A DNA stretch of 64,000 nucleotides, taken from contig CAZCYO010000001.1 of assembly GCA_964503265.1 (NCBI GenBank), positions 25,119 to 89,118 of the forward strand. Direction: 5' to 3'. The DNA is from an uncultured Gammaproteobacteria bacterium (GTDB taxonomy: Bacteria > Patescibacteriota > Microgenomatia > Levybacterales > UBA12049). The notes under the pieces were generated by a model that did no database searches, had not been told where the DNA came from, and saw only the letters and a program-made list of their open reading frames with translations. The position numbers and the translations under genes are program-made. Below are positions 7,942 to 53,541 of this stretch, piece after piece; positions within the stretch are counted from its first letter, which is position 1; each line of letters begins with the position of its first letter.

Positions 7942-10584
7942 CTAGTCTGCGGTTTTGCGAACTTGGGAATCTGATTGGAAGAGTTTAATTTTTTGTTTGA
8001 GATCGGCGAGTTTGTTTAGGGCGTCTAATGGTGTGAGCTGGTGAATGTCGAGGTTCTCGAGTTCTTTATGGATGAAGTGGTCGGCCAGGTCTGAGATCGG
8101 TTTGTCAGTCAGTGTTTGCTCTCGTTCAAGAGATGAGTCGACGTGTCGATTTTCTAGGTTATGTAATATTTCTGTTGCTTTTATGATAACTTCTTCGGGG
8201 ACTCCTGCGAGTTTTGCGACTGCGACTCCGAAACTATGTGATGCTCCACCTGGTTGAATGGTGTGGAGGAAAATTGGTTGGCCGTCTGTTTCTTCTACTG
8301 CCATATGGAAATTTCTGATTTGGTGTGGATATTGTTCTTCGAGTGCTTGAAGTTCGTGATAGTGCGTCGCGAAAAGGGTTTTGGGAGATGGATTAATTGC
8401 TGTAACTAAATACTCAGCGACTGCCCAGGCGATGCTGATGCCGTCATAGGTACTGGTTCCTCGTCCAATTTCGTCCATCACGATAAGACTGTTTTTTGTA
8501 GCATGATGAAGAATGTGTGCCGTCTCAACCATCTCGACCATAAATGTTGAAAGACCAGAAGTGATCACATCTGATGCGCCACTTCGAACAAATATTCGAT
8601 CGACGATACTTAACTGTGCGCTTTCAGCTGGGATGAAACTACCGATTTGGGAAAGTAACACGAGAAGTGCAACTTGTCTGATATAGACGGATTTTCCTGC
8701 CATATTCGGTCCAGTGATGAGGAGTAATTGTTTGGTCGTGTTATCAAGAGACAGATCATTTGGAACGAATTGTTTATCTGAATCGAGTAATTTCTCAACT
8801 ACTGGATGACGGCCTCCTTTAATTTTCATTTCACCCGAATAGAGCAGTTTTGGGCGAATATATGCGTTTTTTTCAGCATTCGTGGCAAAACTGAGTAGGC
8901 AGTCGATAGTTGCGATGCTCCCAGCTGCTTCTTGAAGCACTGTCGTAAACGAGAGGATTTCTTTGAGCGTTTTCGTAAATAAGTCATATTCAATTTGATT
9001 TATTTTTTCCTCAGCGGTTAAGATAATTTCTTCGTGTTCTTTTAGTTCTGGAGTGATAAAGCGTTCGCCGTTAACTAAGGTCTGTTTACGCATATAATTT
9101 TCAGGGACACTCGTGAGATTTGATTTACTGATTTCGATATAAAAACCAAAGACGCGATTAAATCTCACTTTTAAGGATCCAATTCCTGTTCGCGTTCGTT
9201 CTTTTTTCTCAAGTTCAATTACCCATTCATGGCTGTGTGCGACGCGATCTCTCAGCCGATCTAATTCTTTATCAATTCCCTCGCGTATCATCCCACCGCT
9301 TCGAAGATCAATTGGTGGTTCATCGACGAAGGTTCGTGTAATAAGAGCTATCATGTCAGAAAGCTGAGAATAAATTCGTCTAGCACATTGGTTTACAAGT
9401 GTGTTACTAAGTGGGGATAGTAATTCTTTTACTGAAAGAACACTGATAATAGCTTGTTTGAGATTTATTATATCTCGTGCATTGCCGATATTAACTGAAA
9501 GGCGAGAAAGAGTTCGTTCTATATCTGGAATTTGCGTGAGCAAACTTTTTAGCATGAGACGTGTATCACTCATTGACAGTAGCTCATCAACTGCGTCATG
9601 TCGAAATATAATTTCCTCGCGATTTGTGAGTGGGTTTCTCAGCCATTGTTTGAGCTGTCTTCCACCCATTGGAGTATCTGTCGAATCGATCACTGAAAGA
9701 AGTGAACCATGTGTGTCGTGCTCACGAATGGTCGAAAATAATTCTAAGTTAATAATTGTTGATCGATCTAAGATAACCGAATCATCTGATGAACGTGCGG
9801 TTATTTTTTTAAGGTGAGAGATATTGTCTTTCTGTGTTTCTTTAAGGTATCCAAGGAGCGCTGCTGACGATTTAAGTGACAGTTCATATGTATCAATACC
9901 AAAACTGGCAAGGGTCGCAACTCCAAAATGTTTTTTTAATACCTCACGAGCATTTGTCGCATACACATCCCAATTCTGAAAACAAAATATATTCAGTCCA
10001 CGTTCACTACTGAGTAGTTTTAATAACTCTGCGTCATTATATAATTCTTCAGACAGAATACATTCGATGGGATGTAGACGTGATAATTCGTCTCGAAGTT
10101 GTTGTTTATTCTCATCAAGCATAAATTCTGCTGTCGTGAAATAGCCAGTCGAAATGTCTACAGTCGAGATTGCAAGCATATTTTTATCTAGGGCAAGACT
10201 AATTAAAAAATTATTCTCTTTTTTTTCAAGCGCTTTCTCATCGAGCATGGTTCCTGGTGTGATGACGCGTATCACTTCTCGATCGATAATGCCTTTTTTA
10301 TTTGGGAGGCTCATCTGTTCACAAATTGCGACTTTATATCCTGCTTTAACGAGCTTGGCGAGATATGTATCTACTGCATGGTAGGGTACACCTGCCATGG
10401 GGATGCGGCCATCTTTGCCTTTAGGTCTTCCGGTCAGTGTAATATTGAGAACTTTCGCGCCGATATATGCATCATCCATGAATAGCTCATAGAAGTCTCC
10501 CATACGATAAAACAACAAACAGTCCTCATAGTTTTTCTTAATTTCCATGTATTGTTTCATCATCGGAGTACTAAAGGTTTGCAT
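7942..10584 (-). CDS. mutS: DNA mismatch repair protein MutS
   Basis: N-term TPMMKQYMEIKKNYEDCLLFYRMGDFYELF mismatch-binding domain; Walker A GPNMAGKS; 880 aa. Confidence 0.92.
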   Translation of the reverse strand: MQTFSTPMMKQYMEIKKNYEDCLLFYRMGDFYELFMDDAYIGAKVLNITLTGRPKGKDGRIPMAGVPYHAVDTYLAKLVKAGYKVAICEQMSLPNKKGIIDREVIRVITPGTMLDEKALEKKENNFLISLALDKNMLAISTVDISTGYFTTAEFMLDENKQQLRDELSRLHPIECILSEELYNDAELLKLLSSERGLNIFCFQNWDVYATNAREVLKKHFGVATLASFGIDTYELSLKSSAALLGYLKETQKDNISHLKKITARSSDDSVILDRSTIINLELFSTIREHDTHGSLLSVIDSTDTPMGGRQLKQWLRNPLTNREEIIFRHDAVDELLSMSDTRLMLKSLLTQIPDIERTLSRLSVNIGNARDIINLKQAIISVLSVKELLSPLSNTLVNQCARRIYSQLSDMIALITRTFVDEPPIDLRSGGMIREGIDKELDRLRDRVAHSHEWVIELEKKERTRTGIGSLKVRFNRVFGFYIEISKSNLTSVPENYMRKQTLVNGERFITPELKEHEEIILTAEEKINQIEYDLFTKTLKEILSFTTVLQEAAGSIATIDCLLSFATNAEKNAYIRPKLLYSGEMKIKGGRHPVVEKLLDSDKQFVPNDLSLDNTTKQLLLITGPNMAGKSVYIRQVALLVLLSQIGSFIPAESAQLSIVDRIFVRSGASDVITSGLSTFMVEMVETAHILHHATKNSLIVMDEIGRGTSTYDGISIAWAVAEYLVTAINPSPKTLFATHYHELQALEEQYPHQIRNFHMAVEETDGQPIFLHTIQPGGASHSFGVAVAKLAGVPEEVIIKATEILHNLENRHVDSSLEREQTLTDKPISDLADHFIHKELENLDIHQLTPLDALNKLADLKQKIKLFQSDSQVRKTAD

Positions 10585-10776
10585 AGAAATTATTGTAGCA
10601 CCTTTAAATAGTAGTAAGCCTCAAGATTCAAGCTATAAAGAATGATGTTTTATTAATGAAGCGTGTGTCTTGTGGGTTCATTTCAGCTGATTCTTAATCA
10701 TTCCTTACGTAACCTTCTTCTTTCTCTTATATCTAGACGATATAGTAAGAAAACTCAAGGAAGGGGGGATGTATAT

Positions 10777-14932: not shown

Positions 14933-15051
14933 TGTTTAGATACGAATCTTTACTCTACCTGTATTTAACTTGTAATTTTCCTTATTGACAGCTGATTTTT
15001 AGAGATCTACGCTGATAAGGAAGAGCAAAAAAATTGCTCACTAAATATTTA

Positions 15052-15648
15052 ATGAAACACGCAAAAGCTGCCGTTGCTGTTTTTTTTATTACACTAATTT
15101 TTATTAGTTTTTCACCCACGAGAGCTCATGCAAATTTCTTCACTGATGTAGTAGATAAAGTTAAAAGTATTTTTGTAAAAGAAGATAAACCTCAACAAAC
15201 TGATTTGTCGATTGATTCACAAATTGTTCTCGCTCCTGGCGGTGATGTAAATAATAACGGGCAAATAGATTCTGGTGATATCGTACGGTTTATTTATAGT
15301 GTTAAAAATTCTTCAGATAAAACATATGCATTTTCAACTATTAAGACAAACATAAACCGCAACTCACTCAACTTTATTCATAATATTATCGGTGTTTCTG
15401 GACTAGCGGATAATGCTCGAGAAATAACTCTTCCGAATATCAGGTTATATCCTCATCAAGACCGGCTAATTAGTTTCGATGCGAGAGTTAATTATTTTGA
15501 AGATGAAGATCATCAAATCGAAACCACTGCTGTATTAGAAACTGCCGATAAGTCAGTAATTAAAGCTGCAAAAAAAGAAATTACCGCTAAAAAATTGAAG
15601 AAGGGAACAATCAATTCACTGTTTGATCGAAAAAATAGCAATGAATAA
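15052..15648 (+). CDS. secreted protein with a dockerin/EF-hand-like Ca-binding repeat
   Basis: Signal peptide MKHAKAAVAVFFITLIFISFSPTRAHA; DVNNNGQIDSGDIV matches dockerin repeat pattern; track ORF starts at TTG 15034. Confidence 0.4.
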   Translation: MKHAKAAVAVFFITLIFISFSPTRAHANFFTDVVDKVKSIFVKEDKPQQTDLSIDSQIVLAPGGDVNNNGQIDSGDIVRFIYSVKNSSDKTYAFSTIKTNINRNSLNFIHNIIGVSGLADNAREITLPNIRLYPHQDRLISFDARVNYFEDEDHQIETTAVLETADKSVIKAAKKEITAKKLKKGTINSLFDRKNSNE

Positions 15649-18600
15649 AAGAATTAAATTAGTTATAAGCATTGTACTAAATGCAACGTTACTCCTGACT
15701 TCGTATCTTCCTGGGTTCACCCTTTTATTTTCTCCTCAGATTGCAGATGCTGCAAATTCATGTGTTTCATACGGTGGTGGATCTGCTGCTGTTTTAAATG
15801 CCAAGGTTGGTGGTGTTGCCTTAGATCAAGCAGCCACATTTCTAGCTGATATGGATGATATTAAAGGGGCGTATTATGATTCTGTAAAAGATCGAATTGT
15901 TTTTATTGGTAAAGAAAACACATCACTTCCTGAATTTAATAAAGATGATTTAGCAGTAGCAATTAAATCTGTAATCTTTAAAGGAGTGCTTCCGGCTGTA
16001 AGTATCGAGAAATATGAGGGAGATCCTTTTGGTCCTAAACAACGTGCAATTTATTACGGAGGAATTGAGAATACACAATTTGGGAAAACCCTCATGGATG
16101 CAGACATAAAATTAAAAGAATTTGTACATGGATATGATAAAGATGAAAATCCAGTAAGCACATCAGTTTCAGGTTATGAATCACATTTCCAAAGATGGTT
16201 AGATCAAACTCCTGGGTTAACTGAATCTAATGCCAGCAGATGGGTAATAAGACCTAAATTAGTTTCTCTTAAAAGGGATACATCTACCAATTCTTTTGTT
16301 TTTAACGATGTGCAAATGGAAGTATATACGGAGGCGATGTCAGCATCTAATAGCGCAAAGTGGAATACAGCAGCAAGTGATTTTGCTACACATCATTCAT
16401 TACATTTCGATGATTTTGCACAAGAAATTCCAGCTTATGCCGATGCAAAACAGTTAGGAAAAATTGTAGCTGTAATCAAATGGCTTTCTGACAATGGGAT
16501 TCCTTCGGATTTTGCGTGGGCTTCTGATTATGCTCCTACTATTGTCTCAACACCAACTGAAGTAGATACCGTAATAACTCCAGAAATTGATGGATGGCGT
16601 TTATATGGAGGACTTGAGTATTACACGCCAAATACTTATACAACAGATAGTAGTACATCTGCTTCTTTTAAAACAGCTTCTGAGAATATAAATGCACCAA
16701 AGGAAGATATTCATTGGACGTTTACAAAAGATGGCCAAACATATGAATCTGTCGCTGTAGCAGCTGATGCATTTAGAAGTATTGGAGCATATAGTACTAG
16801 TGTTACGGATATGTCATTCCCAATGACCGGGGATTCAAGTCTCTCATTCACAAGATCATATTCTTCTTTCTCTGGAGCACAAAATGGGTGTGGTAGAGGA
16901 TGGTCGTTTATGCCGGCAGCGCTAACTGATAATAATCCTTCAGCTGATGGGGTTATTATTGGGACTTGTCCGAATGATACGTTTAATCATCGATATAAAG
17001 TAGCGTTTAATTCAAACACTGGAATAAGAGAAACATTTACTAACTACTGTGTGAGTAATACTAGTACGTACTTACCAGACGAAAGTGTTTTTCATTCGTC
17101 AATTACTGTTACTTCTACATCCAGCGCGTTAACTGTTTTAAAAGTAAAACAAAAAGATCAAAGTGAATATGAATTTCACGATATTTATTTAGATCCCAAT
17201 CAATATACAAGAACAAATATGCGGCTGGTGGCATATCGTGATAAAAATGGAAACAAAACGAATTACAATTATGATTCATCAAATAAACTAACAAGTATAA
17301 GTGATGATCGTGGACATCAACTAGCGATTACCTATAACGGAAGTAATTTAATTTCTTCTGTTAAGGACTGGACGAATAGAGAGGTTTCCTATGGATATGA
17401 CTCTCAAGGAAATTTAACTTCGGTGACTGATCCCAATGGGGAAACAAAACAGTACGGATATAACGACAATTATAAACTTAGCTCAATTACTGACAGATTA
17501 GGTCACACAATTCTTACTAATACATATAATGATGATGCGCGGTTAGCTACTCAAGTGAATTCAGGAAGTGTATCGGCTACCTTTACGTATGATGACACTC
17601 ATAGAGTTGCAACAACTTCATCCACTCTATCAAGAGTGCAAACAATTAAATATGATGAAAAAGCGAGGATACTAGAACAAATCGACCCACTTAATAATAA
17701 AACTACCTATACTTATGGAACCGAATATGCGCCTTTAACAGTTACAGATAGAAGAAATCATACAACCACAAATACCTATGACTCAAATGGAAATGTAACA
17801 TCTGTAACCGATCCATATAGCAAGACCGTTACTTACACCTATGATGGAAGTAATAGAATTACCCAAATTTCTGATGGTCGATATGGGGCTAGTCCCAAAG
17901 TTTCTAAATTCACTTACGATGGGTCCGGAAATCTGACTCAAGCATCCGAGTCAGGAAGGATTACTAACTTTACCTATGACTCATATGGAGAGATGTTAAC
18001 TAAAACTGATCCATTAACACATGTCATGACTTGGACGCGTGATTCATTTGGAAATAAACTAACAGAAACAAACGATTTGAGTAAAACTACTACGTTTGAA
18101 TACGACACATTAGCAAGGTTAAAGAAATCGACTGATTCAGAAGGAAAGTTCCAAACATTTTCTTATGATTACAATAACAATGTCTTAACGAGTACAAACT
18201 CAGCGGGAATAACGACAAATGAATATACGAAGGAAAATAAACTTAAGAAAGTTACATTACCTGATGGGACAATAACCCAGTTTACATATAACAATGCCGG
18301 GTCATTAAGTAGTGTCCAAGATGCTCTCAATAATACAACTACCTATGGGTATGACCAATATCAGAATATTACTTCTAACTTAAATGCACTTAATAAAACG
18401 ACTTCCTATACTTATGACAAGTTAAATAGAAGAACGGGGTCTACCACTCCACTTAGTAAAGTTACAGCACTTGAATATGATGCAAATGGGAATATCACTA
18501 AAAGAACAGATGCAAATAATAAAGATACGCTTTATCAATACGATAATTTAAATAGGCTTACTCAAATATCATATTCTGACAATAAAATAGTAAATTATAC

Positions 18601-21600
18601 CTATGATGATAGAGGAAATATGACATCGATGAGTGATAGTCTTGGAACAACCTCATACAGTTATGATATTTACAATCGGCTAACGCAGGTAACAGACCCA
18701 AATAGCAAAGTAGTGAGTTATTCCTATGATAATACTGATAATCTAACACAAATTACTTATCCAGGCAGTAAGGTAGTAGCATACGCATATGACAACGCTA
18801 ATCGTATAGAAACAATTACTGATTGGAATAGTCAGCAAACTACTTTTACCTATTTTGATAATGGTCTGATAAAGACTAAAACGCTTCCTAATGGAATAGT
18901 TAGTAGTTACACCTATGATAATGCAAATAGATTAAGTTCTGTTCAGCACACAAAAAGTTCAACTGTACTTGCAAAATTTGACTATGCAAGAAATGCAGTT
19001 GGAGGGATTATAACAGCGACTGAAAGTGGGACATTATTACCAACTACACCTACTTCTTCACCTTCTGCTGTTACTGTGAGTAATTTAGCTACAATGAGTA
19101 GCGTTACAAGTGCTAGTTCATATACGACATCTTCTATCTCACCATCAGCGAATAAATTATTATTACTGACAGTTGCTAGTAGGACAGGAATTACTGCTAA
19201 TCCAAACCAGCCAACCGTAACAGGAAATGGATTAACATGGGTTGCTGTCGATAGCCGAGTATATGATGATACGAGTAGTAGCAGAAGGAGAATAACTCTA
19301 TTTCGAGCAATGGGTACTAGCCCAACAAGTGGGACATTATCAATAGATTTTGGTGGACAGACACAGACAAATTATTCAGCTGTTGTTGATCAAGTAAGTG
19401 GTATGGATACATCTGGGACTAATGGATCAGGAGCTATCGTTCAATCTGCTAATAATTATGACAGTAGTAGTTCTTCATCTACATTATCTGTAACATTAGC
19501 AGCTTTTGGAAATACAAATAATGCAACATATGGAACATTTGCCAATGGAGATGGAGTTGCAGATCCGACTGCTGGTTCAGGATTCACCCAATATGGAGAA
19601 GTAACTGATTCAAATAATGCAATTAAAGTTTTATCAGAATTTAAGAGTACTAATGATACAAGTGTAGATATTGATTGGAATGATCCTTCGGAATTAGGGG
19701 GAATTGCTGTAGAAATAAAAGCGGGTAGTACAAGTAGTTACGAAACTGTCTCCGCATCTAATCTGATATCAGGAAGTACAACAAATGTGAATAGTTCCTC
19801 TACTGCATCTATTTCGCCAAGTGCAAATAAACTTGAGTTGTTAACTGTATCAAGCAGAACTGATATTTCTGCTAATCCAAATCAGCCAACTGTAACAGGA
19901 AATGGACTAACATGGGTTGCGGTAAACAGTATTGTTTATGATACTACTAGCACTAGTCGAAGAAGAGTTACCTTATTTAGAGCGATGGGTGCAAGCCCTA
20001 CATCTGGTGCACTTTCCATAGATTTTAGTGGACAAACGCAAACTGATATAACTTGGTCAGTGGATGAGTTATCTGGTGTCGATACAACAGGGACTAGTGG
20101 CTCAGGTGCAATTGTTCAATCTGCAACGAATAAAGATGAGACAGGATCCGCAACATCATTAGCAATTACCTTGTCTTCATTTGGAAATACAGCAAATGCT
20201 ACGTATGCCGGGATTGGTAAAGATGGAAATACTTCGGCTACAGCTGGTTCAGGTTTTACTATTTCTTCAGATGTTGCATCTTCGACAAATGTAGGTACTA
20301 GCACTCAATGGAAAAACACTAATGATACCTCAGTAGATATTTCATATGCTAGTTCTGTTTTAGTTGGAGGAATTGCTGTAGAAATTAAGGCGGGTACTTC
20401 ATCATCAGTATATCCGAATATCTCTTTATCGAATAAGACAACTGGATCTAACTCGTCTGGAGTTAATTCAGCAAATACATCATCTATTTCACCGTCTGCG
20501 AATAAATTACAGTTGTTAACTGTCGCTAGTAGAACGGCTATTACTGCAAATCCAAATCAACCTACAGTTTCAGGCAATGGATTAACATGGACTGCAGTAA
20601 ACAGCGTAGTATATGATGACTCAAGTAGCAGTAGAAGGAGAATCAGTGTATTTCGTGCGTTAGGAGCCAGTCCATCTTCAGGAGCAATTACAATAAGTTT
20701 TGGTGGGCAAACACAAACAGATATAGACTGGTCTTTAGATGAAGCAAGTAATGTTGATACAAGTGGAAGTAATGGATCCGGGGCAATAGTTCAATCAGCG
20801 ACAAATTATGATGCCAGTGGAACAGCATCTACTCTATCAGTTTCATTAAGTAGCTTCGGAAGTAATAGTAATGCAACATTTGGTGCTTTTGCAAATGGAT
20901 ATGGATTAGCAAATCCGACTGTAGGGTCAGGGTTTACAAAATATGGGGAACTCGCTGATTCAAATAATAATATAAAAGTTCTTACTGAATTTAAAAATAG
21001 TAATGATACTAGTATTGATATAAATTGGAATGATAATTCGGAACTCGGTGGTATAGCGATAGAATTAAAAGCTGCAGGAGTTCAATCAAATACTACTCAG
21101 TTCACATATGATTCAGTTCATAGATTACTGACAACGACATTTCCAGCTAATTCATTTGTGTACACATATGACGCGGTAGGAAATAGATTAACGAATACTA
21201 AAGATGGAGTACAGACTACAGCAACATTTAACGATGATAATAAGCTAACGCAATTTGGTTCTACGAGTTACTCGTATGATAACAATGGAAATAGGACTGC
21301 AGCTGGAAGTAAGACAATCGCATATAATTTAGAAAATAAGGTTGCTACTCAATCTGCGAGTGGGGATCCAACGATAGAGTTTACATATGATGGAAATGGG
21401 AAGAGGTTAGGGCAGAAAGTAAATGGGACACAGACTAGAAGATATATTAATGACATCTCAGGAAGTCTAGAAAAAGTACTTATCACACAAGATCTCCAAA
21501 ATAGCACAGATAACTACTACCTCTATGGAAACGGCCTGGTTAGTGAAGGAGGAGTAAGTTCAGGTAATCGTAATTATTATCTCGAGGATGGATTAGGCAA

Positions 21601-22246
21601 CATACGAGCTATTACAGATAGCAGCGGAAACTCACTCGATACCATGACATATGATCCCTATGGAAATCTCCTCACCGGATCAAGCTCAGCAGAATTTAAA
21701 TTCAAAGGAGAACAACTAAACACCGATACAAGCCTCTACTACATGCGTGCCAGATACTATGATCCAACCACAGGAACATTCACCTCAAAAGACCCGCACG
21801 AAGGAGATCTAAATAATCCAAACTCACAGAATGGCTATGACTATGCAAATGGTGATCCTATTAATCTGAATGATCCATCTGGAGAGCTAGTATTTGCAGA
21901 TGATGCAATTTTTATTGGAGCAGCAGCGTGTGCAGGAGTGTATGTTTATGCTACTAATCCAGCTGTTAAATCTGCTGTAAATACAACTGTCAGCACGACA
22001 ATTAATCAAATTATAGGAGGTATAAATACTTTACTTGATGAATCTAGAAATCCAAAACAAGATACAAAGTTGAGTGAAGGTGAGATAAAGAAACTACAAA
22101 ACGGTGGTCAAGATATTCATGATATTAAAGGCGGTGATAGTGGCAAGGATCTTTTTAAAGATCCAAAGACGGGCGAAATTTATATTAAGCCTAAAAACGG
22201 TGCAGGACCAGGTGACGAAACAGGGTTAAATATCAATGATTTTTAA
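15623..22246 (+). CDS. giant RHS/YD-repeat polymorphic toxin protein with Sec signal peptide
   Basis: Signal peptide; dozens of YD repeats (YTYD..GN.T..TD); RHS core YYMRARYYDPTTGTFTSKDP then DPSGEL; ~115-aa variable C-terminus; alternative ATG at 15641 (MNKRIKL...). Confidence 0.85.
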   Translation: MIEKIAMNKRIKLVISIVLNATLLLTSYLPGFTLLFSPQIADAANSCVSYGGGSAAVLNAKVGGVALDQAATFLADMDDIKGAYYDSVKDRIVFIGKENTSLPEFNKDDLAVAIKSVIFKGVLPAVSIEKYEGDPFGPKQRAIYYGGIENTQFGKTLMDADIKLKEFVHGYDKDENPVSTSVSGYESHFQRWLDQTPGLTESNASRWVIRPKLVSLKRDTSTNSFVFNDVQMEVYTEAMSASNSAKWNTAASDFATHHSLHFDDFAQEIPAYADAKQLGKIVAVIKWLSDNGIPSDFAWASDYAPTIVSTPTEVDTVITPEIDGWRLYGGLEYYTPNTYTTDSSTSASFKTASENINAPKEDIHWTFTKDGQTYESVAVAADAFRSIGAYSTSVTDMSFPMTGDSSLSFTRSYSSFSGAQNGCGRGWSFMPAALTDNNPSADGVIIGTCPNDTFNHRYKVAFNSNTGIRETFTNYCVSNTSTYLPDESVFHSSITVTSTSSALTVLKVKQKDQSEYEFHDIYLDPNQYTRTNMRLVAYRDKNGNKTNYNYDSSNKLTSISDDRGHQLAITYNGSNLISSVKDWTNREVSYGYDSQGNLTSVTDPNGETKQYGYNDNYKLSSITDRLGHTILTNTYNDDARLATQVNSGSVSATFTYDDTHRVATTSSTLSRVQTIKYDEKARILEQIDPLNNKTTYTYGTEYAPLTVTDRRNHTTTNTYDSNGNVTSVTDPYSKTVTYTYDGSNRITQISDGRYGASPKVSKFTYDGSGNLTQASESGRITNFTYDSYGEMLTKTDPLTHVMTWTRDSFGNKLTETNDLSKTTTFEYDTLARLKKSTDSEGKFQTFSYDYNNNVLTSTNSAGITTNEYTKENKLKKVTLPDGTITQFTYNNAGSLSSVQDALNNTTTYGYDQYQNITSNLNALNKTTSYTYDKLNRRTGSTTPLSKVTALEYDANGNITKRTDANNKDTLYQYDNLNRLTQISYSDNKIVNYTYDDRGNMTSMSDSLGTTSYSYDIYNRLTQVTDPNSKVVSYSYDNTDNLTQITYPGSKVVAYAYDNANRIETITDWNSQQTTFTYFDNGLIKTKTLPNGIVSSYTYDNANRLSSVQHTKSSTVLAKFDYARNAVGGIITATESGTLLPTTPTSSPSAVTVSNLATMSSVTSASSYTTSSISPSANKLLLLTVASRTGITANPNQPTVTGNGLTWVAVDSRVYDDTSSSRRRITLFRAMGTSPTSGTLSIDFGGQTQTNYSAVVDQVSGMDTSGTNGSGAIVQSANNYDSSSSSSTLSVTLAAFGNTNNATYGTFANGDGVADPTAGSGFTQYGEVTDSNNAIKVLSEFKSTNDTSVDIDWNDPSELGGIAVEIKAGSTSSYETVSASNLISGSTTNVNSSSTASISPSANKLELLTVSSRTDISANPNQPTVTGNGLTWVAVNSIVYDTTSTSRRRVTLFRAMGASPTSGALSIDFSGQTQTDITWSVDELSGVDTTGTSGSGAIVQSATNKDETGSATSLAITLSSFGNTANATYAGIGKDGNTSATAGSGFTISSDVASSTNVGTSTQWKNTNDTSVDISYASSVLVGGIAVEIKAGTSSSVYPNISLSNKTTGSNSSGVNSANTSSISPSANKLQLLTVASRTAITANPNQPTVSGNGLTWTAVNSVVYDDSSSSRRRISVFRALGASPSSGAITISFGGQTQTDIDWSLDEASNVDTSGSNGSGAIVQSATNYDASGTASTLSVSLSSFGSNSNATFGAFANGYGLANPTVGSGFTKYGELADSNNNIKVLTEFKNSNDTSIDINWNDNSELGGIAIELKAAGVQSNTTQFTYDSVHRLLTTTFPANSFVYTYDAVGNRLTNTKDGVQTTATFNDDNKLTQFGSTSYSYDNNGNRTAAGSKTIAYNLENKVATQSASGDPTIEFTYDGNGKRLGQKVNGTQTRRYINDISGSLEKVLITQDLQNSTDNYYLYGNGLVSEGGVSSGNRNYYLEDGLGNIRAITDSSGNSLDTMTYDPYGNLLTGSSSAEFKFKGEQLNTDTSLYYMRARYYDPTTGTFTSKDPHEGDLNNPNSQNGYDYANGDPINLNDPSGELVFADDAIFIGAAACAGVYVYATNPAVKSAVNTTVSTTINQIIGGINTLLDESRNPKQDTKLSEGEIKKLQNGGQDIHDIKGGDSGKDLFKDPKTGEIYIKPKNGAGPGDETGLNINDF
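19135..21075 (+). repeat. three tandem ~670-nt (~224-aa) intragenic repeats inside the RHS gene
   Basis: SISPSANKL.LLTV.SRT.I.ANPNQPTV.GNGLTW.AV.S.VYD..S.SRRR...FRA.G.SP.SG...I.F.GQTQT ... GGIA.E.KA recurs at ~19135, ~19808, ~20482. Confidence 0.7.
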
Positions 22247-22993
22247 TTGCGTGATATAATGCTTCATATGTTCAACGATCCTGGGCTAAAAAACGAGAGT
22301 ACTGCGTGGCTTAATATTATTGGATTTGATATGAATCCAGATGAAATAACTAAAGAAGTCGGCGTTAATCCAACAAAAACTAGAATAAAAGGTGAATACC
22401 GAACTGTCGGTACAAAAACGCCGAGAAAAATTATTAATAAGGAGAATCAATGGATTTTAGAGTCAAGTTTATCTCGTAAGTTACCATTAGAAAAGCATTT
22501 GGAGCATCTGCTTGATAAAATAAAATTCCATAAAGACAGCTTTAAATATCTTACAAAAAGCTGCACTGTTGAGCTGAATAGTGCTTTATATTACTACGAA
22601 GCCAATCCAGGGCTTTCTTTTGAAACTGAACTTCTTAAGGAAATAGCAGATTTTGATATTTCATTAAATCTTGATATATACTGTCTAGCTGGAACAGTTC
22701 TTGAGCTAGAACAACCGAAAGTTGTTAGGCATTTAAAAAAACATTTGTCTGAAGTAAAGTTTCTTTTGAATGGTACTAAAGAAAATGAAGTAAATTATAT
22801 TTTAGAAAGTTTGAAGGGTATAGAAGAATCCGCCTATGCTATTCAGAGTGATTATATGCACGATTTGATTTGGACTGAAAAGCTCGAAGATGAAAGGTAC
22901 GAAGAAACTCTATTAAAAATAGCTAAGGAAATAAATAACATTAATAACTATGTAAAGAAATCTAAATATTTATCTTCATTAGTGAATAAATGA
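22247..22993 (+). CDS. candidate immunity protein, DUF4279-like N-domain
   Basis: Starts immediately after RHS stop (TTG; ATG at 22259/22268); ...PDEITK..G..PTK...KGE...G.......W.L.S... pattern recalled from DUF4279; family assignment unverified. Confidence 0.4.
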   Translation: MRDIMLHMFNDPGLKNESTAWLNIIGFDMNPDEITKEVGVNPTKTRIKGEYRTVGTKTPRKIINKENQWILESSLSRKLPLEKHLEHLLDKIKFHKDSFKYLTKSCTVELNSALYYYEANPGLSFETELLKEIADFDISLNLDIYCLAGTVLELEQPKVVRHLKKHLSEVKFLLNGTKENEVNYILESLKGIEESAYAIQSDYMHDLIWTEKLEDERYEETLLKIAKEINNINNYVKKSKYLSSLVNK

Positions 22994-23108
22994 GTGATTT
23001 AGTATTTAATATTTTTATTAGTTTATTTGGACTATTTTTTGCTATACAGTTTAAAAAAATGGAGAAAGAGATTCTTAAACCAATAGGTTTATAGTATAAT
23101 CAAAAAAA

Positions 23109-23594
23109 ATGAGTCGTTTAAAAATTGGCGATATTTTCGAAATCCCATTATCTAATAACAAAAAAGCATATGGACAGTATATTTATTTAGATTTTTTTGG
23201 ACCTTTAATACGGGTATTTAATCTCATAGTAGATGTAAATAAGCAGGTGGACATAGATGTTATTACCTCTTGCAAATTACTTTTCCCCCCAGTTTATACA
23301 GGTGTTAAAGCTGCAATCAAAAATGGCATGTGGAGCGTGATAGGGAACAAAGAAATACATGAATTTGTATTTCCGGGGTTTGTAAGAACATTTCAAGACT
23401 TAAATACAGGTGATGCAACAATTTGGTTTTTATGGGATGGGAAAAACAACGTACGAATTGGTAAAAAACTTTCTGATGATATGAAAAAATTTGAGTTTCT
23501 TGCGATATATTCTCCCGATTTAATTGAAAAAAGGATTATTAGCAAGGAAAAACCATATCAAGATTTAATTCTTACAAATAAATTAGCAAATTAG
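23109..23594 (+). CDS. hypothetical protein, candidate immunity/orphan immunity gene
   Basis: 161 aa, KIGDIFEIPL..NKKAYGQYI N-terminus similar in style to predicted immunity families; context only. Confidence 0.3.
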   Translation: MSRLKIGDIFEIPLSNNKKAYGQYIYLDFFGPLIRVFNLIVDVNKQVDIDVITSCKLLFPPVYTGVKAAIKNGMWSVIGNKEIHEFVFPGFVRTFQDLNTGDATIWFLWDGKNNVRIGKKLSDDMKKFEFLAIYSPDLIEKRIISKEKPYQDLILTNKLAN

Positions 23595-23595
23595 A

Positions 23596-23928
23596 ATGAT
23601 ACTCTCTCTACCTGCACGAATACGACAAGAATCAATAAAAAAACTTGTTGAAGTAGCAACCTTAATGGAATCAAATAAAATTAATTTGATAGAAGGTAGT
23701 AGACATATTAATAGATTACGTCATTATACAGAAGATGCTAATGATGATCTTTTTACTATTTTTATTTTAGTGAACTCAGACACAGATGATATACCACTTA
23801 ACGAAACCAGAAAAAACTTTAGTAAAGCACTTTTAGAAGAAAAAGATAAAAAAATGGTTGATTACTTAGCTAATATGAAACCTACTATTTTGCAAGGTTG
23901 TAAAGAAATTATAAAAAAGTTCTCCTAA
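23596..23928 (+). CDS. hypothetical small helical protein
   Basis: 110 aa, starts 2 nt after previous stop. Confidence 0.3.
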   Translation: MILSLPARIRQESIKKLVEVATLMESNKINLIEGSRHINRLRHYTEDANDDLFTIFILVNSDTDDIPLNETRKNFSKALLEEKDKKMVDYLANMKPTILQGCKEIIKKFS

Positions 23929-23987
23929 AATAATATAGCGATTTGAAACCGTCTCTAAAATTAACCTCTGCTATAATACCATCCATT

Positions 23988-24512
23988 ATGAAAATTAGTT
24001 TTATTACAAAGTTATCTGTTGAAAACTGTATTAAAAAAATTAGTGATAACGCTGAGAGAAATACGTTTATGGCGAGCTTTTCTCGTTTATGGGATTACGA
24101 AAAGACATTTTTTTATCGTATAAAGGGGAATACTTTTCGACTAGAAAAAGTTAATTATTATAGAAACTCATTCAAACCAGTCTTTTATGGAAAATTAATT
24201 AAAGAAAATAATGGAACGAGGATAGAAGGTTATTTTGGAATTCATCAAGCTGTTAAACTGTTCATGATATTTTGGTTTCTAGGGGTAACAATTTTGAGCC
24301 TTATCCCCGCACTTAATGCGATTGATGATCTTTTTATTCCTTCAAAAATAGTTCCCGGCCATCTTACTGCAAATCCGCTTTTGGCATTGTCTATACCGTT
24401 TATATTTATTGGATTTGGAATATTAATAATTTTTATCGGAAAATATTTTGGGGAAAAAGATGAAAATGAAATAGTCGAATTTATTAAATCTAAGCTAGAA
24501 GTAATTTCTTAA
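23988..24512 (+). CDS. hypothetical membrane protein (2 C-terminal TM)
   Basis: ATG 23988 preceded by tataat; track ORF begins at TTG 23943. Confidence 0.3.
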   Translation: MKISFITKLSVENCIKKISDNAERNTFMASFSRLWDYEKTFFYRIKGNTFRLEKVNYYRNSFKPVFYGKLIKENNGTRIEGYFGIHQAVKLFMIFWFLGVTILSLIPALNAIDDLFIPSKIVPGHLTANPLLALSIPFIFIGFGILIIFIGKYFGEKDENEIVEFIKSKLEVIS

Positions 24513-47920: not shown

Positions 47921-47975
47921 TTTATTTTTGAGAATCTCGTTTGCTTCCCATTTCATTTGCTCGTATAATAATCAT

Positions 47976-49514
47976 ATGGTTCTTATAAAAAAGTATTGGA
48001 AAGAAATACTCATCAGTCTAGCACTTGTAGTTGGATATTTTTTCCTTCGTCTCCTTTCTTTACAAAGCCTCCCTATTTTTACTGATGAAGCTATTTATGT
48101 TAGATGGGCACAAATTGCACTTCAGGATGCGAACTGGCGATTCATATCTCTAACTGATGGTAAGCAACCTATGTATGTCTGGGTTGCGCTTATTTTCATT
48201 AAATTTATTCAGGATCCACTAATCGCTGGACGAATGGTATCTGTAGTTTGTGGGTTTTTTACATTGGTTGGTTTGTGGCTTCTATCATATGAGCTATTTA
48301 AAAATAAACGAATGGCTTTTTTGACTGCACTGTTATATGTCGTTTTCCCTTTTGCACAAGTGCTTGATCGGATGGCTCTCTATGACAGTATGGTAGGCGC
48401 ATTTGCTGTTTGGGGGCTTTATTTATCGATTCTTCTTGTTAGGCACAGAACAGTGACTAATGCATATACACTTGGTATTATTTGGGGAGGAGGAGTGCTT
48501 ACTAAGACGAATGCGTTTTTTAGTATTGCAGCAGTACCACTTACTCTCCTTTTAGGTAACTTTGAAAGAAAAAATTGGAAAAAAGAAATCGTACGCTGGA
48601 TACTGCTTGCAGGGTTTGCTGCAATCATTTCTCAGGTAATGTATACGATCCTTCGATTGTCTCCACTTTACGGCATGATTAATACGAAGAATGCTACCTT
48701 TGTTTATCCAGTTGGTGAATGGATTCATCACCCTTTAACCTATTTCTCTGGGAATTTTCATGGATTAACTAGTTGGTTACTCCAATATCTAGGAATCTCA
48801 TATTCGTTACTCCTCGTTCTTGGACTAGGCGTTTTTATGAAAGAATGGAAAGAAAAAGTTGTCCTATTTATCTACTTTTTGGCTCCATTTATATTTCTCG
48901 CACTATTTGGAAAAGTTATTTTCCCTCGTTTTATTTTCTTTACGAGCCTTATGCTACTTCCAATTATTGGATGGGGACTTAATTTTATTTTAAATGGTAT
49001 TTCCTATTTTCTAAAATCAAAAGATAAACAGTTTATCTCTATAACTCAGATACTTGTCGTGATTCTCTTTATTATATATCCGCTTTATACGTCAGTCACT
49101 TTTGCCGTTGATCCGACAAAGGCTCCTATCGCTGATGCAGATAATGTGCAATATATAAACGGATGGAACGCAGGATGGGGTGTTGATCAAAGTATCGAAT
49201 TATTTAAAAAAGAAGCGCAGGATAAAAAAATATTTATCGGTACAGAAGGAACATTCGGTATGATGCCTTTTGCACTTGAAATGCAGCTTGTTGATAATCC
49301 AAATATAATTCTAAAAGGGTATTGGGGATTTGATAAAACACTTCCAGATGAAGCTTTGGTCTATGCTAAACAAATGCCAGCATATTTCGTGTTCTATCAA
49401 CCCAACCATCGTCCACAGCTAGATGCAAATTTGTATCCAATGAAATTAGTATTTAAAGTCCAACAAGGAAATACAAATTATTATTATTCGGTTTACCAAA
49501 TCATCTCCCGATAA
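47976..49514 (+). CDS. GT-C membrane glycosyltransferase (PMT/ArnT-like)
   Basis: FTDEAIYVRWAQ (DE motif loop 1), ~12 TM; track ORF begins at TTG 47928. Confidence 0.5.
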   Translation: MVLIKKYWKEILISLALVVGYFFLRLLSLQSLPIFTDEAIYVRWAQIALQDANWRFISLTDGKQPMYVWVALIFIKFIQDPLIAGRMVSVVCGFFTLVGLWLLSYELFKNKRMAFLTALLYVVFPFAQVLDRMALYDSMVGAFAVWGLYLSILLVRHRTVTNAYTLGIIWGGGVLTKTNAFFSIAAVPLTLLLGNFERKNWKKEIVRWILLAGFAAIISQVMYTILRLSPLYGMINTKNATFVYPVGEWIHHPLTYFSGNFHGLTSWLLQYLGISYSLLLVLGLGVFMKEWKEKVVLFIYFLAPFIFLALFGKVIFPRFIFFTSLMLLPIIGWGLNFILNGISYFLKSKDKQFISITQILVVILFIIYPLYTSVTFAVDPTKAPIADADNVQYINGWNAGWGVDQSIELFKKEAQDKKIFIGTEGTFGMMPFALEMQLVDNPNIILKGYWGFDKTLPDEALVYAKQMPAYFVFYQPNHRPQLDANLYPMKLVFKVQQGNTNYYYSVYQIISR

Positions 49515-49516
49515 GT

Positions 49517-51106
49517 ATGGAACTAGTAAAACATATTCTGAGAGCAAAGCTTTTTACTATCATACTTATTCTGTTATGCTCACTTCCACTTATTTTTCCA
49601 TTATTCCATCCAGGATTTTTTGTCTCAGACGATGGAGATATATTGATAATACGTTTAACTGCTTTTCATGAAGCTTTTGCACAGGGTCAATTTCCTGTTC
49701 GACTTATTCCACGATTATATTTCCATTATGGTTATCCGGTAAGTAATTTTTTATACCCAGGATATCTATATATTTCAGAAGCATTTCACCTAATTCATTT
49801 CGGATTTATTAATTCTATAAAAATACTACTCATTCTTTCTCTCAGTTTGAGTGGAGTATTTACTTATTTGTGGCTTAACAAATGGTTAAAAAAATTCCCA
49901 AGTATCATCGGAAGTTTAGTATATTTGTATGCTCCATATCATTATTACGATATGTATAAACGTGGATCTATAGGAGAAGTGTTGGCTCTTGCAGTTGTGC
50001 CATTTGTTTTTTGGGTGATGGAACTGCGATATGTTTCATTAATTATTATTGGGTTATCTTTTCTTATTATTTCACACAATACGCTTGCTATAGTCTTTCT
50101 CCCATTACTTGTTAGTTACTATTTTATTCGACATAAGGTATGGCAGCGAAAAAATGAAATCCTCCGCATGAGTCTTTTTCTCATTATTTCTCTACTAATT
50201 TCATCTTTCTTCTGGATACCTGCACTCTATGAATTGCACTATACGATTTTCTCACAGACAACAGTCAGTGAAATAGGAAATTATTTTATCCAACCGGATC
50301 ATATGCTTTTTGGAAAATTGAGTTACTTTTATTTGGTTGTAACTGCAGGTATTTCATTTGTTCTTTTCAAATACAGACAGAAAGTAGAGAAAATAAACAT
50401 GGCTTTACTAACTTTTCTAGGATTTTTTAGCACAATTGCATTATTCTTAAATACTTCACAGAGTGTAATTATTTGGAATACTTTACCAATTTCATTTATT
50501 CAATTTCCGTTTCGTTTGTTCGCTATTACTATGATTTTCTTTGCGATGGTGGTGGCTATCGTAATCGATATGATAAAAGGTAAAAAGCAATATGTTGTTG
50601 GCGTAGTACTTGCTATTCTTTTTATTGGCCCTTTATTCTTTTTTATTCGACCTCAAGAATATTCAGGAAGAGATGACATGTTTTATTCAACGAATGATGA
50701 TTCAACAACGATAAAAAATGAATACTTACCGACATGGGTTAAAGAGCGATCTTTTTCAAAACCAAAATCAGAAATAGAAGGCAAAGGAGTAACATATCTT
50801 GGAGAAAAGAAAGGCACATACATGATAGATGTTACAGGAGATAGTTCGCGAAACATGAGATTTAACATGATTTATTATCCAGGATGGGTTGCAAAAGCAG
50901 ATGGAGTTATGATCCCAATTAGTTACAACAACAATAAAGGAGTAATGGATGTCGTAATACCGAGAAACACTAATCAAGTGACATTTATGTTTACTGAAAC
51001 ACCAGTTCGAATGATTAGTAATATTTTGTCAATTATCGGTCTTATATTCTTAGGTATAGTACTTGTTCGAGATATAACAATATATTATGCAGCTAGTAAA
51101 AAATAA
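49517..51106 (+). CDS. polytopic membrane protein, paralog A
   Basis: PLFHPGFFVSDDGD...FPVRLIP...GYP..FLYPGYLYI; 13+ TM. Confidence 0.4.
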   Translation: MELVKHILRAKLFTIILILLCSLPLIFPLFHPGFFVSDDGDILIIRLTAFHEAFAQGQFPVRLIPRLYFHYGYPVSNFLYPGYLYISEAFHLIHFGFINSIKILLILSLSLSGVFTYLWLNKWLKKFPSIIGSLVYLYAPYHYYDMYKRGSIGEVLALAVVPFVFWVMELRYVSLIIIGLSFLIISHNTLAIVFLPLLVSYYFIRHKVWQRKNEILRMSLFLIISLLISSFFWIPALYELHYTIFSQTTVSEIGNYFIQPDHMLFGKLSYFYLVVTAGISFVLFKYRQKVEKINMALLTFLGFFSTIALFLNTSQSVIIWNTLPISFIQFPFRLFAITMIFFAMVVAIVIDMIKGKKQYVVGVVLAILFIGPLFFFIRPQEYSGRDDMFYSTNDDSTTIKNEYLPTWVKERSFSKPKSEIEGKGVTYLGEKKGTYMIDVTGDSSRNMRFNMIYYPGWVAKADGVMIPISYNNNKGVMDVVIPRNTNQVTFMFTETPVRMISNILSIIGLIFLGIVLVRDITIYYAASKK

Positions 51107-52784
51107 ATCATTTTTCTATTTAGTACTTCTTTGTGTGCTATCAGTGCTAACTGTATTACCATTTTTTTATAATGGTTTTTTCACGATGCATGATAATACT
51201 CAGGTAGCTCGTGTTTCAGAGATGTCACTCAGTCTTCGTGACGGAATGATACCCGTTCGTTGGGTGATGAATCTAGGATATGGATATGGGTATCCTATTT
51301 TTACGTTCTATGCGCCTTTTGCATATTATATAGGTGCTTTCTGGATGACTTTTGGACTAGATGCTCTTGTTGCTACAAAACTAATGATGATGAGTGGCGT
51401 TATATTAGCAGGTATGTTTATGTATTTGTTTGCAAAAGATATCTGGGGAGAAGAAGGAGGGTTTGTTGCCGCTCTTTTCTACTTATTTGCTCCATATCAT
51501 GCAGTGAATATTTATGTACGAGGTGCGGTTGCAGAGTTTTGGGGAATGGCTTTTTTACCCTTACTTTTTTATGGGATATGGAATACCTATAAAACAGGAA
51601 AATGGCGTTATGTATGTATAAGCAGTATCGCATACGCAGGCATTATTCTGTCACACAACTTAACTGCGATGATGGTTACACCGTTTGTTCTTGTTGTTAT
51701 TGGTGGGATGAAAATCATGTATCTCTCAAGAAAAGAATATAAAAAAATACTACCACTTGGAATACTTTTGATACTCGGAATAACACTTTCTGCATTTTAT
51801 TGGCTTCCAGCAGTTACAGAGATGAAGTACACGAATGTTGTTTCACAAATAACAGGAACAGGTTCAAAATTTGGTGATCACTTTGTTTGCATGAATCAGT
51901 TGTGGGATAGTGCATGGGGATATGCTGGCTCAGCACCAGGATGTGTTGATGGTATTTCATTTAGAATCGGTAAGCTTCATATTCTTTTTACTATTATCGG
52001 GATTATTCTAGGAATTTTTATCTACAAAAAGAATAGAGAAAAAGGAATTATACTTGGTGGAAGTATTTTATTTTTTTTCGCAGCAACTTTTTTAACACTT
52101 CAAAACTCTGAACTTCTCTGGAAAAGCATTTCTGCGATGTCGTATTTTCAATTTCCGTGGCGCTTTCTGTTACTTGTCGTATTCTTTTCATCATTTATTA
52201 GTGGAGGAGTGATCTGGTATGTCCGTGAATACCTTCAAAACCAAAGAATACTATTTTATGCTTTTCTTATTGGAGTCATGCTTGGGTGCATACTATTATA
52301 TTCAAAATTATTTGTTCCACAACTCTTAACTCAAGATACAGCTAAATCACTAACTGATTCCAAATCAATTCGTTTTACTATTTCTAAAATATCAGATGAG
52401 TATATGCCTAAAAATTTTCACAAACCTTTGACCGAAAGTGACGTAGTAACTGAAAAAAGTGCCATTATTAATGGCCAAGGAACAATTAATGAACAACCTA
52501 TACTGTCCTATGCTCAGGGATATTCTGTTGAAGCTATTACTCCTGTTACTCTTCTTTTGCGAACTGCGCCGTTTCCAGCATGGAGAACATATATTGATGG
52601 CAAAGAAGTACCACACACGAATCTGACGTCAGGAATGAAGGTAGTAGTTCCGATCGGAACACATATGGTATCAGCACAATATATATCAACATGGATTGAA
52701 ATGACAGGAAATCTAATAACTCTTACTAGTATGCTAGGGCTTGTTATTGGTATAATTTATTTGCATAAGAAAAACATGCTCTAA
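51087..52784 (+). CDS. polytopic membrane protein, paralog B of 49517..51106
   Basis: PFFYNGFFTMHDN...IPVRWVMNLGYGYGYPIFTFYAPFAYYI aligns with paralog A; YLFAPYH shared. Confidence 0.4.
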   Translation: MQLVKNKSFFYLVLLCVLSVLTVLPFFYNGFFTMHDNTQVARVSEMSLSLRDGMIPVRWVMNLGYGYGYPIFTFYAPFAYYIGAFWMTFGLDALVATKLMMMSGVILAGMFMYLFAKDIWGEEGGFVAALFYLFAPYHAVNIYVRGAVAEFWGMAFLPLLFYGIWNTYKTGKWRYVCISSIAYAGIILSHNLTAMMVTPFVLVVIGGMKIMYLSRKEYKKILPLGILLILGITLSAFYWLPAVTEMKYTNVVSQITGTGSKFGDHFVCMNQLWDSAWGYAGSAPGCVDGISFRIGKLHILFTIIGIILGIFIYKKNREKGIILGGSILFFFAATFLTLQNSELLWKSISAMSYFQFPWRFLLLVVFFSSFISGGVIWYVREYLQNQRILFYAFLIGVMLGCILLYSKLFVPQLLTQDTAKSLTDSKSIRFTISKISDEYMPKNFHKPLTESDVVTEKSAIINGQGTINEQPILSYAQGYSVEAITPVTLLLRTAPFPAWRTYIDGKEVPHTNLTSGMKVVVPIGTHMVSAQYISTWIEMTGNLITLTSMLGLVIGIIYLHKKNML

Positions 52785-52791
52785 TCTATTT

Positions 52792-53541
52792 ATGGCTGCA
52801 AAGAAACTTTCACTTGAAATTACAATCCCTGTCTATAATGAAGAAAAAGAGCTTGAGGATAGTATTTTAAAACTCCATACTTTCTGTAAAAAAAACATGC
52901 AAGACTATGCGTGGCGAATAACTATCGCAGATAACGCGTCAAGTGATAATACACCAGTTATTGGAGCGACTCTTGCTAAGAAATACTCTGAAATAAAATT
53001 ATTTCGTTTAGAAGAAAAGGGAAGAGGACGTGCTGTAAAGAGGGCATGGAGTGAGTCAGATTGTGATATTTGTGCTTATATGGACTTGGACCTTTCGACA
53101 GATTTAAAGCATCTCCCAGCCCTTTGTAAGGCGCTTGAAAATGGATATGATATTGCGATTGGATCTCGACTCAAAAAGGGAGCGCTTGTTGAGGGAAGAA
53201 CAATGCTTCGAGAAATAACGTCTCGTACACTTAATTTCTTTTTTATTAAATTATGGTTCCAAACATCATTTACTGATGCACAGTGTGGTTTTAAAGCAGT
53301 TACGCGAGACGTTGTTGAGAAACTTATTCCAAAAATTCAGGATAATGGATGGTTTTTTGATGGAGAATTACTTATCGTTGGTGAGAAAAGTGGATATAAC
53401 ATATATGAAGAGCCCGTGCACTGGGTAGATAATCCTGGTTCAACAGTTCGCCTTATTTCAACTATTTCAGGGGATATACGAGTAATGTTTCGATTACTTA
53501 CTACTAAGCCATGGAAACAGATCTCATCGAACCTAACATAG
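52792..53541 (+). CDS. GT2 glycosyltransferase (DPM1-like)
   Basis: ITIPVYNEE...ITIADNASSDNT, DLD, QCGFK. Confidence 0.85.
   Translation: MAAKKLSLEITIPVYNEEKELEDSILKLHTFCKKNMQDYAWRITIADNASSDNTPVIGATLAKKYSEIKLFRLEEKGRGRAVKRAWSESDCDICAYMDLDLSTDLKHLPALCKALENGYDIAIGSRLKKGALVEGRTMLREITSRTLNFFFIKLWFQTSFTDAQCGFKAVTRDVVEKLIPKIQDNGWFFDGELLIVGEKSGYNIYEEPVHWVDNPGSTVRLISTISGDIRVMFRLLTTKPWKQISSNLT

Follow-up and report, generated by a model that had tools for sequence, protein, structure and literature searches.

The window analysed here, i.e., 64,000 nucleotides (nt) of contig CAZCYO010000001.1 (assembly GCA_964503265.1), carries on its plus strand an RHS/YD-repeat polymorphic toxin gene of 2201 amino acids (aa) at 15641..22246, recognised by Pfam and NCBIfam. 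The open reading frame (ORF) is intact over 6.6 kb (15623..22246); it opens with a TTG at 15623, and the ATG at 15641 is its probable start. The exact 2201-aa product is also present in a public protein collection. Within its YD repeats lies a complete non-YD insertion of 685 aa (aa 1139-1823, 19037..21091, plus strand) that is composed of three tandem modules. This insertion, which an earlier note on the window had described as a triplicated and possibly acquired module, is the subject of the following analysis.

The SISPSANKL motif occurs three times in the RHS ORF, i.e., at aa 1171, 1396 and 1621 (nt 19133, 19808 and 20483), with a period of exactly 225 aa, while the GGIA.E.KA motif ends at aa 1367, 1590 and 1817 (nt 19723, 20392 and 21073). 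When the protein is compared with itself, 78/100 identities are found at an offset of 225 aa and 73/100 at an offset of 450 aa, which is far above the background of all other offsets (ordinary YD periodicity, at most 34/100). A profile built from homologues finds exactly three matches in the six frames of the window (E-values from 1e-86 to 5e-93). On the plus strand, module 1 covers 19049..19723 (N-terminal strand/linker 19049-19132, core 19133-19723; module hidden Markov model (HMM) E 5e-93), module 2 covers 19724..20392 (linker 19724-19807, core 19808-20392; E 1e-86), and module 3 covers 20393..21073 (linker 20393-20482, core 20483-21073; E 5e-91). Including linkers, the units are pairwise 59-66% identical as protein and 62-69% as DNA. 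Tandem Repeats Finder does not detect the three-unit array at the DNA level because the copies are too diverged, which fits their description as diverged but in frame. The Ser/Thr-rich "linkers" of 23-30 aa are part of the unit, i.e., they match the N-terminal segment of stand-alone homologues, the family profile covers 23 residues upstream of each core (profile positions 11-236 matched), and they are modelled as confident beta-strands in the three-unit structure prediction. The earlier note had rightly seen three tandem, Ser/Thr-rich copies of about 224 aa that diverged in nucleotide sequence while staying in frame, and the self-comparison it had named as a check gives the expected periodicity. 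Its span of 19135-21075 is accurate for the core edges (at most 2 nt off) but too narrow for the full insertion, since the linkers belong to the unit.

A single unit matches nothing in Pfam, NCBIfam or the sequences of the Protein Data Bank (PDB), such that by these searches it belongs to no described carbohydrate-binding module (CBM) or lectin family. Its fold is predicted with high confidence. For one unit, AlphaFold2 (alignment of 123 sequences) returns a compact 14-strand all-beta domain with a predicted local distance difference test (pLDDT) of 97.7 and a predicted template modelling score (pTM) of 0.93; the model of the three-unit stretch reaches a pLDDT of 93.4 and a pTM of 0.65. Best fold neighbours in the PDB are the receptor-binding protein (RBP) head of the lactococcal phage Tuc2009 (5e7f) and a Photorhabdus TNF-like lectin (9ib6), together with the microvirus spike protein G, the TNF-like domain of chlamydial pGP3, BclA/C1q/TNF heads, PRD1 P5 and tail-fibre tips, all of which align over about 80-115 residues only. 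Among predicted viral structures (BFVD), matches across the entire domain are found to many uncharacterised proteins of phages (query-based TM-score, TMq, 0.6-0.87), and the named neighbours are a "minor tail protein" of the mycobacteriophages Hawkeye and Myrna. We also considered the unit as a variant of the YD repeat, which is rejected given the missing RHS_repeat match and the separate 14-strand fold.

The host protein shows the layout of a secreted RHS toxin. A predicted Sec signal peptide (MNKRIKLVISIVLNATLLLTSYLPGFTLLFSPQIADA, 15641..15751, plus strand) with a basic n-region, a hydrophobic core and an A-x-A site was called by eye from the translation. It is followed by an N-terminal region of no assigned function (15752..17224, plus strand), in which DUF6531 matches aa 388-429 with 20.1 bits, i.e., below the Pfam cut-off of 24.1. 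For the N-terminal ~380 aa (aa ~45-430, 15752-16900), neither a family nor a PDB sequence match was found. The region is 49% identical in the full-length relative P0364 (related proteins and contigs are referred to by P and L handles), and these ~380 aa may form an export, anchoring or plug-associated domain that is specific to this RHS clade. Over the whole protein, Pfam RHS_repeat matches in 15 stretches (E 6.5e-81), accompanied by NCBIfam's YD_repeat_2x, with TIGR01643 at 190 bits. The shell part upstream of the insertion (17225..19036, plus strand) is delimited by the Pfam and NCBIfam YD repeats together with the junction alignment, ends with ...FDYARNAVGGIITATESGTL, and matches the solved Rhs shells 7q97, 8h8a and 8uy4. 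The downstream part (21092..21886, plus strand) aligns with teneurin and teneurin-like shells, beginning right after the insertion, and contains the Rhs-associated core (21650-21883; TIGR03696 with 70.6 bits, cut-off 32.5) as well as DPSGE (...GDPINLNDPSGE) at aa 2084-2088 (21872-21886), a predicted self-cleavage motif that, as read from the sequence, agrees with the DPxG(L) pattern. The C-terminal toxin domain is Ntox33 (PF15533, E 6.6e-12, 46.2 bits, cut-off 28.4) at 22049..22237 on the plus strand; the C-termini differ in the relatives P0364, P0121 and P0363. By its domain content, the gene product is a predicted Sec-signal RHS polymorphic toxin, i.e., it combines YD repeats, an Rhs core and a variable toxin with candidate immunity genes downstream.

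To locate the junction, relatives were collected by a search with the insertion deleted from the host protein, and the insertion boundaries follow from the alignment with P0242, P0121, P0364, P0241, P0243, P0282 and P0363. The insertion sits about 190 aa before the Rhs-associated core with YD repeats on both sides. In 78/117 related RHS proteins the homologous junction is uninterrupted, and P0242 (49% identical) has a loop of 8 aa there. At the same junction, other relatives carry either the same module or something else. P0121 (on contig L127, 74% identical to the window protein) holds two modules (460 aa), and so does P0364 (464 aa), which is 49-56% identical and ends in a different toxin. 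P0241 and P0243 (54% and 47% identical) instead have two CBM_11-like domains of ~150 aa, with a CBM_11 match of E 4e-6 for P0243, while the related RHS protein P0282 shows a GH115_C-like domain (E 1e-13). Two modules are found at the corresponding place even in P0363, a TcB/TcC-type fusion of SpvB, FG-GAP, TcdB_toxin_midN, RHS and Ntox44. Since these real inserts all sit at exactly the same residues, we consider the site a permissive hotspot. Many seeming gaps of 30-290 aa that further RHS relatives show here turned out on inspection to be register slips of the YD repeats and were discarded as insertions.

The modules are also more alike than the proteins carrying them. While the shell of P0363 is only 28-32% identical to that of the window protein, its modules are 73-75% identical to modules 1 and 3 of the window. 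In detail, module 1 shares 73% identity with the first module of P0121 and 75% with that of P0363, and module 3 shares 72% with the first module of P0363 and 73% with its second one. The module thus moves between scaffolds, given that the modules of P0363 are far more alike than its scaffold. These comparisons also bear on what the earlier note had claimed about the origin of the insertion. That the module interrupts the YD-repeat region and is no standard part of RHS shells is confirmed by the flanking repeats, its own fold without an RHS_repeat match, and the comparison with homologous RHS proteins which the note had suggested (the 78/117 without insertion). Its idea of an acquired module holds as well, as the closest relatives are stand-alone and phage-encoded and the modules exceed the scaffolds in similarity across RHS proteins. 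The phage connection, the variable copy number and the insertion hotspot go beyond that note.

The three copies probably do not share one simple history. Module 2 is 82% identical to module 2 of P0121 (bootstrap 1.0), of which we regard it as the orthologue; with modules 1 and 3 of its own protein it shares no more than 62-65% identity. The latter two cluster with module 1 of P0121 and with P0133, albeit at a weak support of ~0.5. Whether module 3 stems from a duplication of module 1 or from a separate acquisition is not resolved by the neighbour-joining tree (support 0.14-0.54). In 300 bootstraps, RHS-borne modules are never monophyletic, i.e., stand-alone proteins interleave with them. The copies thus probably do not derive from one in-place triplication. 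Between units, the ratio of nonsynonymous to synonymous substitution rates (dN/dS) is 0.17-0.22 at a dS of 1.2-1.7, at which synonymous sites are saturated. All of the 7 invariant positions of the family and 43 of its 51 conserved positions are identical in all three units, and the remaining changes are conservative. Variation concentrates at unit residues ~140-170 and 180-188, both between the copies and across the family. As judged from these patterns, the copies are old and maintained by selection.

Nearest relatives of the unit are unannotated stand-alone proteins of ~230-260 aa with 55-64% identity over their full length. A profile search of 1.84 billion representatives returned 5,622 clusters (counted at 50% identity) at E<=1e-3 and 4,212 at E<=1e-10. 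Relatives are encoded on 115 IMG/VR viral contigs. On the phage contigs L004/L006, the module gene lies in a series of portal, a 500-580-aa protein, module gene, scaffold-like protein and major head protein; on L008 it adjoins a "structural protein" near a minor tail protein, and on L001 two paralogues are found near a glucosaminidase and an M23 peptidase. Stand-alone members, as distinct from the RHS-borne copies, are therefore classed by their location with phage virion genes, i.e., they reside in structural gene blocks with terminase, portal, major head and minor tail neighbours. A PHROGs scan gave only a weak match to phrog_38872 ("unknown function"), and this for stand-alone forms only. 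The number of modules per protein is mostly 1 (190 proteins) or 2 (45), rarely 3 (5, e.g., the natural three-copy proteins P0128 and P0122) and once 4. Fusion partners comprise TIG, Big, Kelch/galactose-oxidase-like, Laminin_G_3, phosphoesterase, PhoD, F5/8-C and Sipho_tail (P0231) domains. Furthermore, contigs of metagenome-assembled genomes from many phyla carry the module, among them several Patescibacteria groups and many Gemmatimonadales. In summary of its distribution, the family behaves as a mobile extracellular or virion-surface module of the adhesion type.

Some of these loci show further features. On L001, a phage-like contig of 59.7 kb, the two stand-alone paralogues (1991-2656 and 10001-10717) are about 8 kb apart. 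Glycosyltransferase and nucleotide-sugar epimerase genes stand beside the structural genes of L006 (15832-17004) and L008 (5897-7965), which may point to glycosylation of the virion or of the host surface. The only cultured isolate among the 44 genome loci is Geobacter hydrogenophilus DSM 13691 (NZ_JAHCZI010000005.1, 24305-44865; L111), with a relative of 40% identity on what may be a prophage and might then offer an experimental handle. The 1076-aa protein P0143 (L126, 3886-7116) consists of two copies of another Ser/Thr-rich domain (~200 aa), one module, the C-terminal portion of an RHS shell, and a toxin, and has no upstream YD repeats; it resembles a C-terminal cassette of the orphan type with the putative binding modules included. 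Its second Ser/Thr-rich domain was tested as a relative of the module by hhalign against the module profile, without a significant result.

Taking this together, we lean, by a modest margin over even chances, towards the interpretation that the insertion is an exchangeable, externally displayed and multivalent cell-surface binding array that tethers a toxin-filled shell. In its outline, this agrees with the acquired binding or carbohydrate-recognition module suggested by the earlier note. That is, the YD-repeat shell of a Sec-exported protein would enclose the C-terminal Ntox33 toxin, and three full copies of a phage-type beta-sandwich protein (~225 aa each, independently folding) would have been spliced into the shell wall at a single loop between hairpins. 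The three modules would sit outside the shell, because three folded domains of together ~75 kDa cannot share the cavity with the toxin. This outer position is deduced from the size of the insertion (685 aa) and has a precedent in the mosquito protein SGS1, where a CBM, the carbohydrate-recognition domain of a lectin, a beta-propeller and a wedge domain are inserted in the Rhs/YD repeats, decorate the outside of this shell, and are proposed as receptor domains (PMC9935623). The array would then act as a multivalent binder of some structure on the cell surface (probably a glycan or a polymer of the cell wall) and hold the toxin container on cells, i.e., on the target cell and possibly on the surface of the producer, too. 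We infer the binding function, and with it the putative ligand class and targeting role, from the fold neighbours, the family distribution, the tandem multiplication and the CBM-like replacements in relatives. By comparison, the cassette is exchangeable, given relatives with 0, 1 or 2 copies or with other beta-sandwich/CBM-like domains at the same junction, and the module also moves among RHS scaffolds that are unrelated and structural genes of phages.

Several observations weigh against this interpretation. Conservation of the module is highest in polar motifs of its loops (SSSRRR, DTSGTNGSGAIVQS, NDT). As surfaces that bind receptors tend to vary, these conserved loops could instead belong to an interface for assembly or to an active site. 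In some phage contigs (L004/L006) the module gene is found among head genes and not among tail genes, for which reason a role in phage host recognition is not established. Finally, a tblastn search with the module found nothing in 50,697 records of cultured phages, which thus offer no experimental handle.

The conserved loops lead to the alternative that the module is an enzyme, e.g., one acting on a surface polymer with the polar motifs as active site, or an assembly element of virion and shell rather than a binder. Invariant or nearly invariant loop residues (S1, D45, S50, R51, R58, D92-T-S-G-T-N-G-S-G-A, N174-D-T), the location among head-morphogenesis genes in L004/L006 and fusions of the module to enzymes in other proteins would all be in line with this. 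Given the CBM-like replacements and fold neighbours listed above, we assign it a low probability. An equally low one is given to a single-chain pseudo-trimer, in which the three copies would rebuild, within a monomeric RHS protein, the homotrimeric TNF/C1q-like head of a phage. Here, the fold neighbours are indeed jelly rolls that form trimers (TNF-like lectin, C1q, BclA, phage RBP heads), the pTM of the three-unit model is intermediate (0.65) with ordered linkers, and natural three-copy proteins exist (P0128, P0122). On the other hand, one (190 proteins) or two copies (45) are the rule and three the exception (only 5), and the closest RHS relatives, i.e., P0121, P0364 and P0363, each hold a pair of copies at this site. 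Threefold packing was checked in the model, which yields no extended match to the single-chain trimers 4dou_A and 5hzf_A (133-136 residues aligned), and the pseudo-trimer is thus not supported.

A further alternative keeps the binding module and changes its biological role, i.e., it is a sub-case: the modules may bind a wall or S-layer glycan of the producer and hold the shell there, like a wall-associated protein of the WapA type, for contact-dependent delivery. The protein has a Sec signal without a recognisable anchor motif, phage proteins of the module family would recognise surfaces of the producer's own or a related species, and a surface-glycan gene cluster is located in the same window (47928-63734). 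Still, the N-terminal 400 aa, conserved in P0364, are an equally possible anchor, and the TcB/TcC-type P0363 has modules despite a different N-terminal and export context. We thus consider self-anchoring unlikely, though less so than the enzyme and pseudo-trimer alternatives. A chimera of the assembly, or a decaying insert without function, might be suspected from the metagenome-type assembly and from the protein being a singleton at 90% identity. This is effectively refuted by independent contigs and purifying selection: the same architecture with the same junction recurs on contigs from other samples (P0121 on L127, P0364, P0363), dN/dS is ~0.2 with family-conserved residues kept in all copies, and the reading frame is intact across 6.6 kb.

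The binding-array interpretation can be related to known systems. Like SGS1, the window protein has non-YD, independently folding beta domains encoded within the YD-repeat sequence and flanked by it on both sides, and its shell after the insertion aligns to the C-terminal shell of SGS1 (8fjp_A). Unlike the eukaryotic SGS1 with its different single-copy domains, it is bacterial, bears at a single junction three tandem copies of one undescribed domain family that has relatives in phages, and is known from sequence and models. With the TcB/TcC cocoon of the Tc (ABC) toxins it shares an RHS shell that encloses a C-terminal toxin and a non-YD domain that interrupts the repeats, and the TcB/TcC-like fusion P0363 bears two of the same modules. 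The TcB propeller of Tc toxins serves as a TcA-docking gate and is placed early in the shell, whereas the modules of the window protein come late (~190 aa before the Rhs core), differ in fold and vary in copy number; moreover, Pfam finds no SpvB and TcdB domains in the window protein. Phage receptor-binding and tail-tip heads and TNF/C1q-like lectins are the nearest PDB folds to the module, over part of its length, and homologues reside in phage structural gene blocks. As for the receptor-binding domains of CdiA (PMC5371414), an exchangeable internal segment would determine the recognised cells separately from the C-terminal toxin. In contrast to CdiA, a filamentous type V secretion system protein of Gram-negative bacteria with no sequence or structural relation, the exchangeability of the window cassette is seen by comparison only. 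The insertion of receptor-type domains in an RHS shell is thus already known (SGS1, TcB propeller). New, with respect to the searched databases and literature, are the large undescribed domain family (absent from Pfam and NCBIfam), its connection with structural genes of phages, and a hotspot that is precise to the residue, holds alternative cassettes and shows signs of exchange among RHS scaffolds without close relation.

For RHS toxins other than those fired by a type VI system, it is poorly understood how target cells are found and how the toxins attach to them; this holds for the Sec-exported, wall-associated types of Gram-positive-like and uncultured bacteria. The locus singles out a removable protein piece, swapped between toxins and common to phages, that could attach a toxin to cells; its family (>4,000 clusters at 50% identity) is common in structural modules of uncultured phages and in extracellular bacterial proteins. 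A wider and clearly more doubtful generalisation, which we offer tentatively, is that the loop ~190 aa before the Rhs core is a general plug-in site, into which bacteria load virion-surface proteins from the phages of their competitors. Toxin and phage would then share a receptor, and cassettes with 1-3 copies would pass from one RHS scaffold to another, unrelated one, either along with the C-terminal toxin or independently of it. If so, Sec-exported RHS toxins would gain a second polymorphic and retargetable element, and a large undescribed family of phage adhesion domains would be defined.

The surroundings of the gene are those of a bacterial chromosome, given that the neighbours are MutS, a histidine kinase and Lon. 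Upstream, a 204-aa ORF (15034-15648, plus strand) overlaps the start of the RHS ORF; its sole match is dockerin-like and sub-threshold (E 0.007). The RHS gene is followed by four small ORFs (22247-24512, plus strand) of ~30% GC content. The first two are candidate immunity genes identified by Pfam (22247..23594, plus strand), i.e., DUF4279 at 22247-22993 (E 4.5e-19) and Imm26 at 23109-23594 (E 1.4e-13), and the others are unannotated (110 and 189 aa). By sequence, the four ORFs look like an immunity gene with orphan immunity genes. Further downstream, at 47928-63734 on the plus strand, lies a co-directional low-GC (31-35%) run of surface-glycan synthesis genes, for which no link to the RHS gene is shown. 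It encodes PMT_2, two PTPS_related membrane proteins, three GT2 and one GT1 glycosyltransferases, a Polysacc_synt_3 flippase and YfhO.

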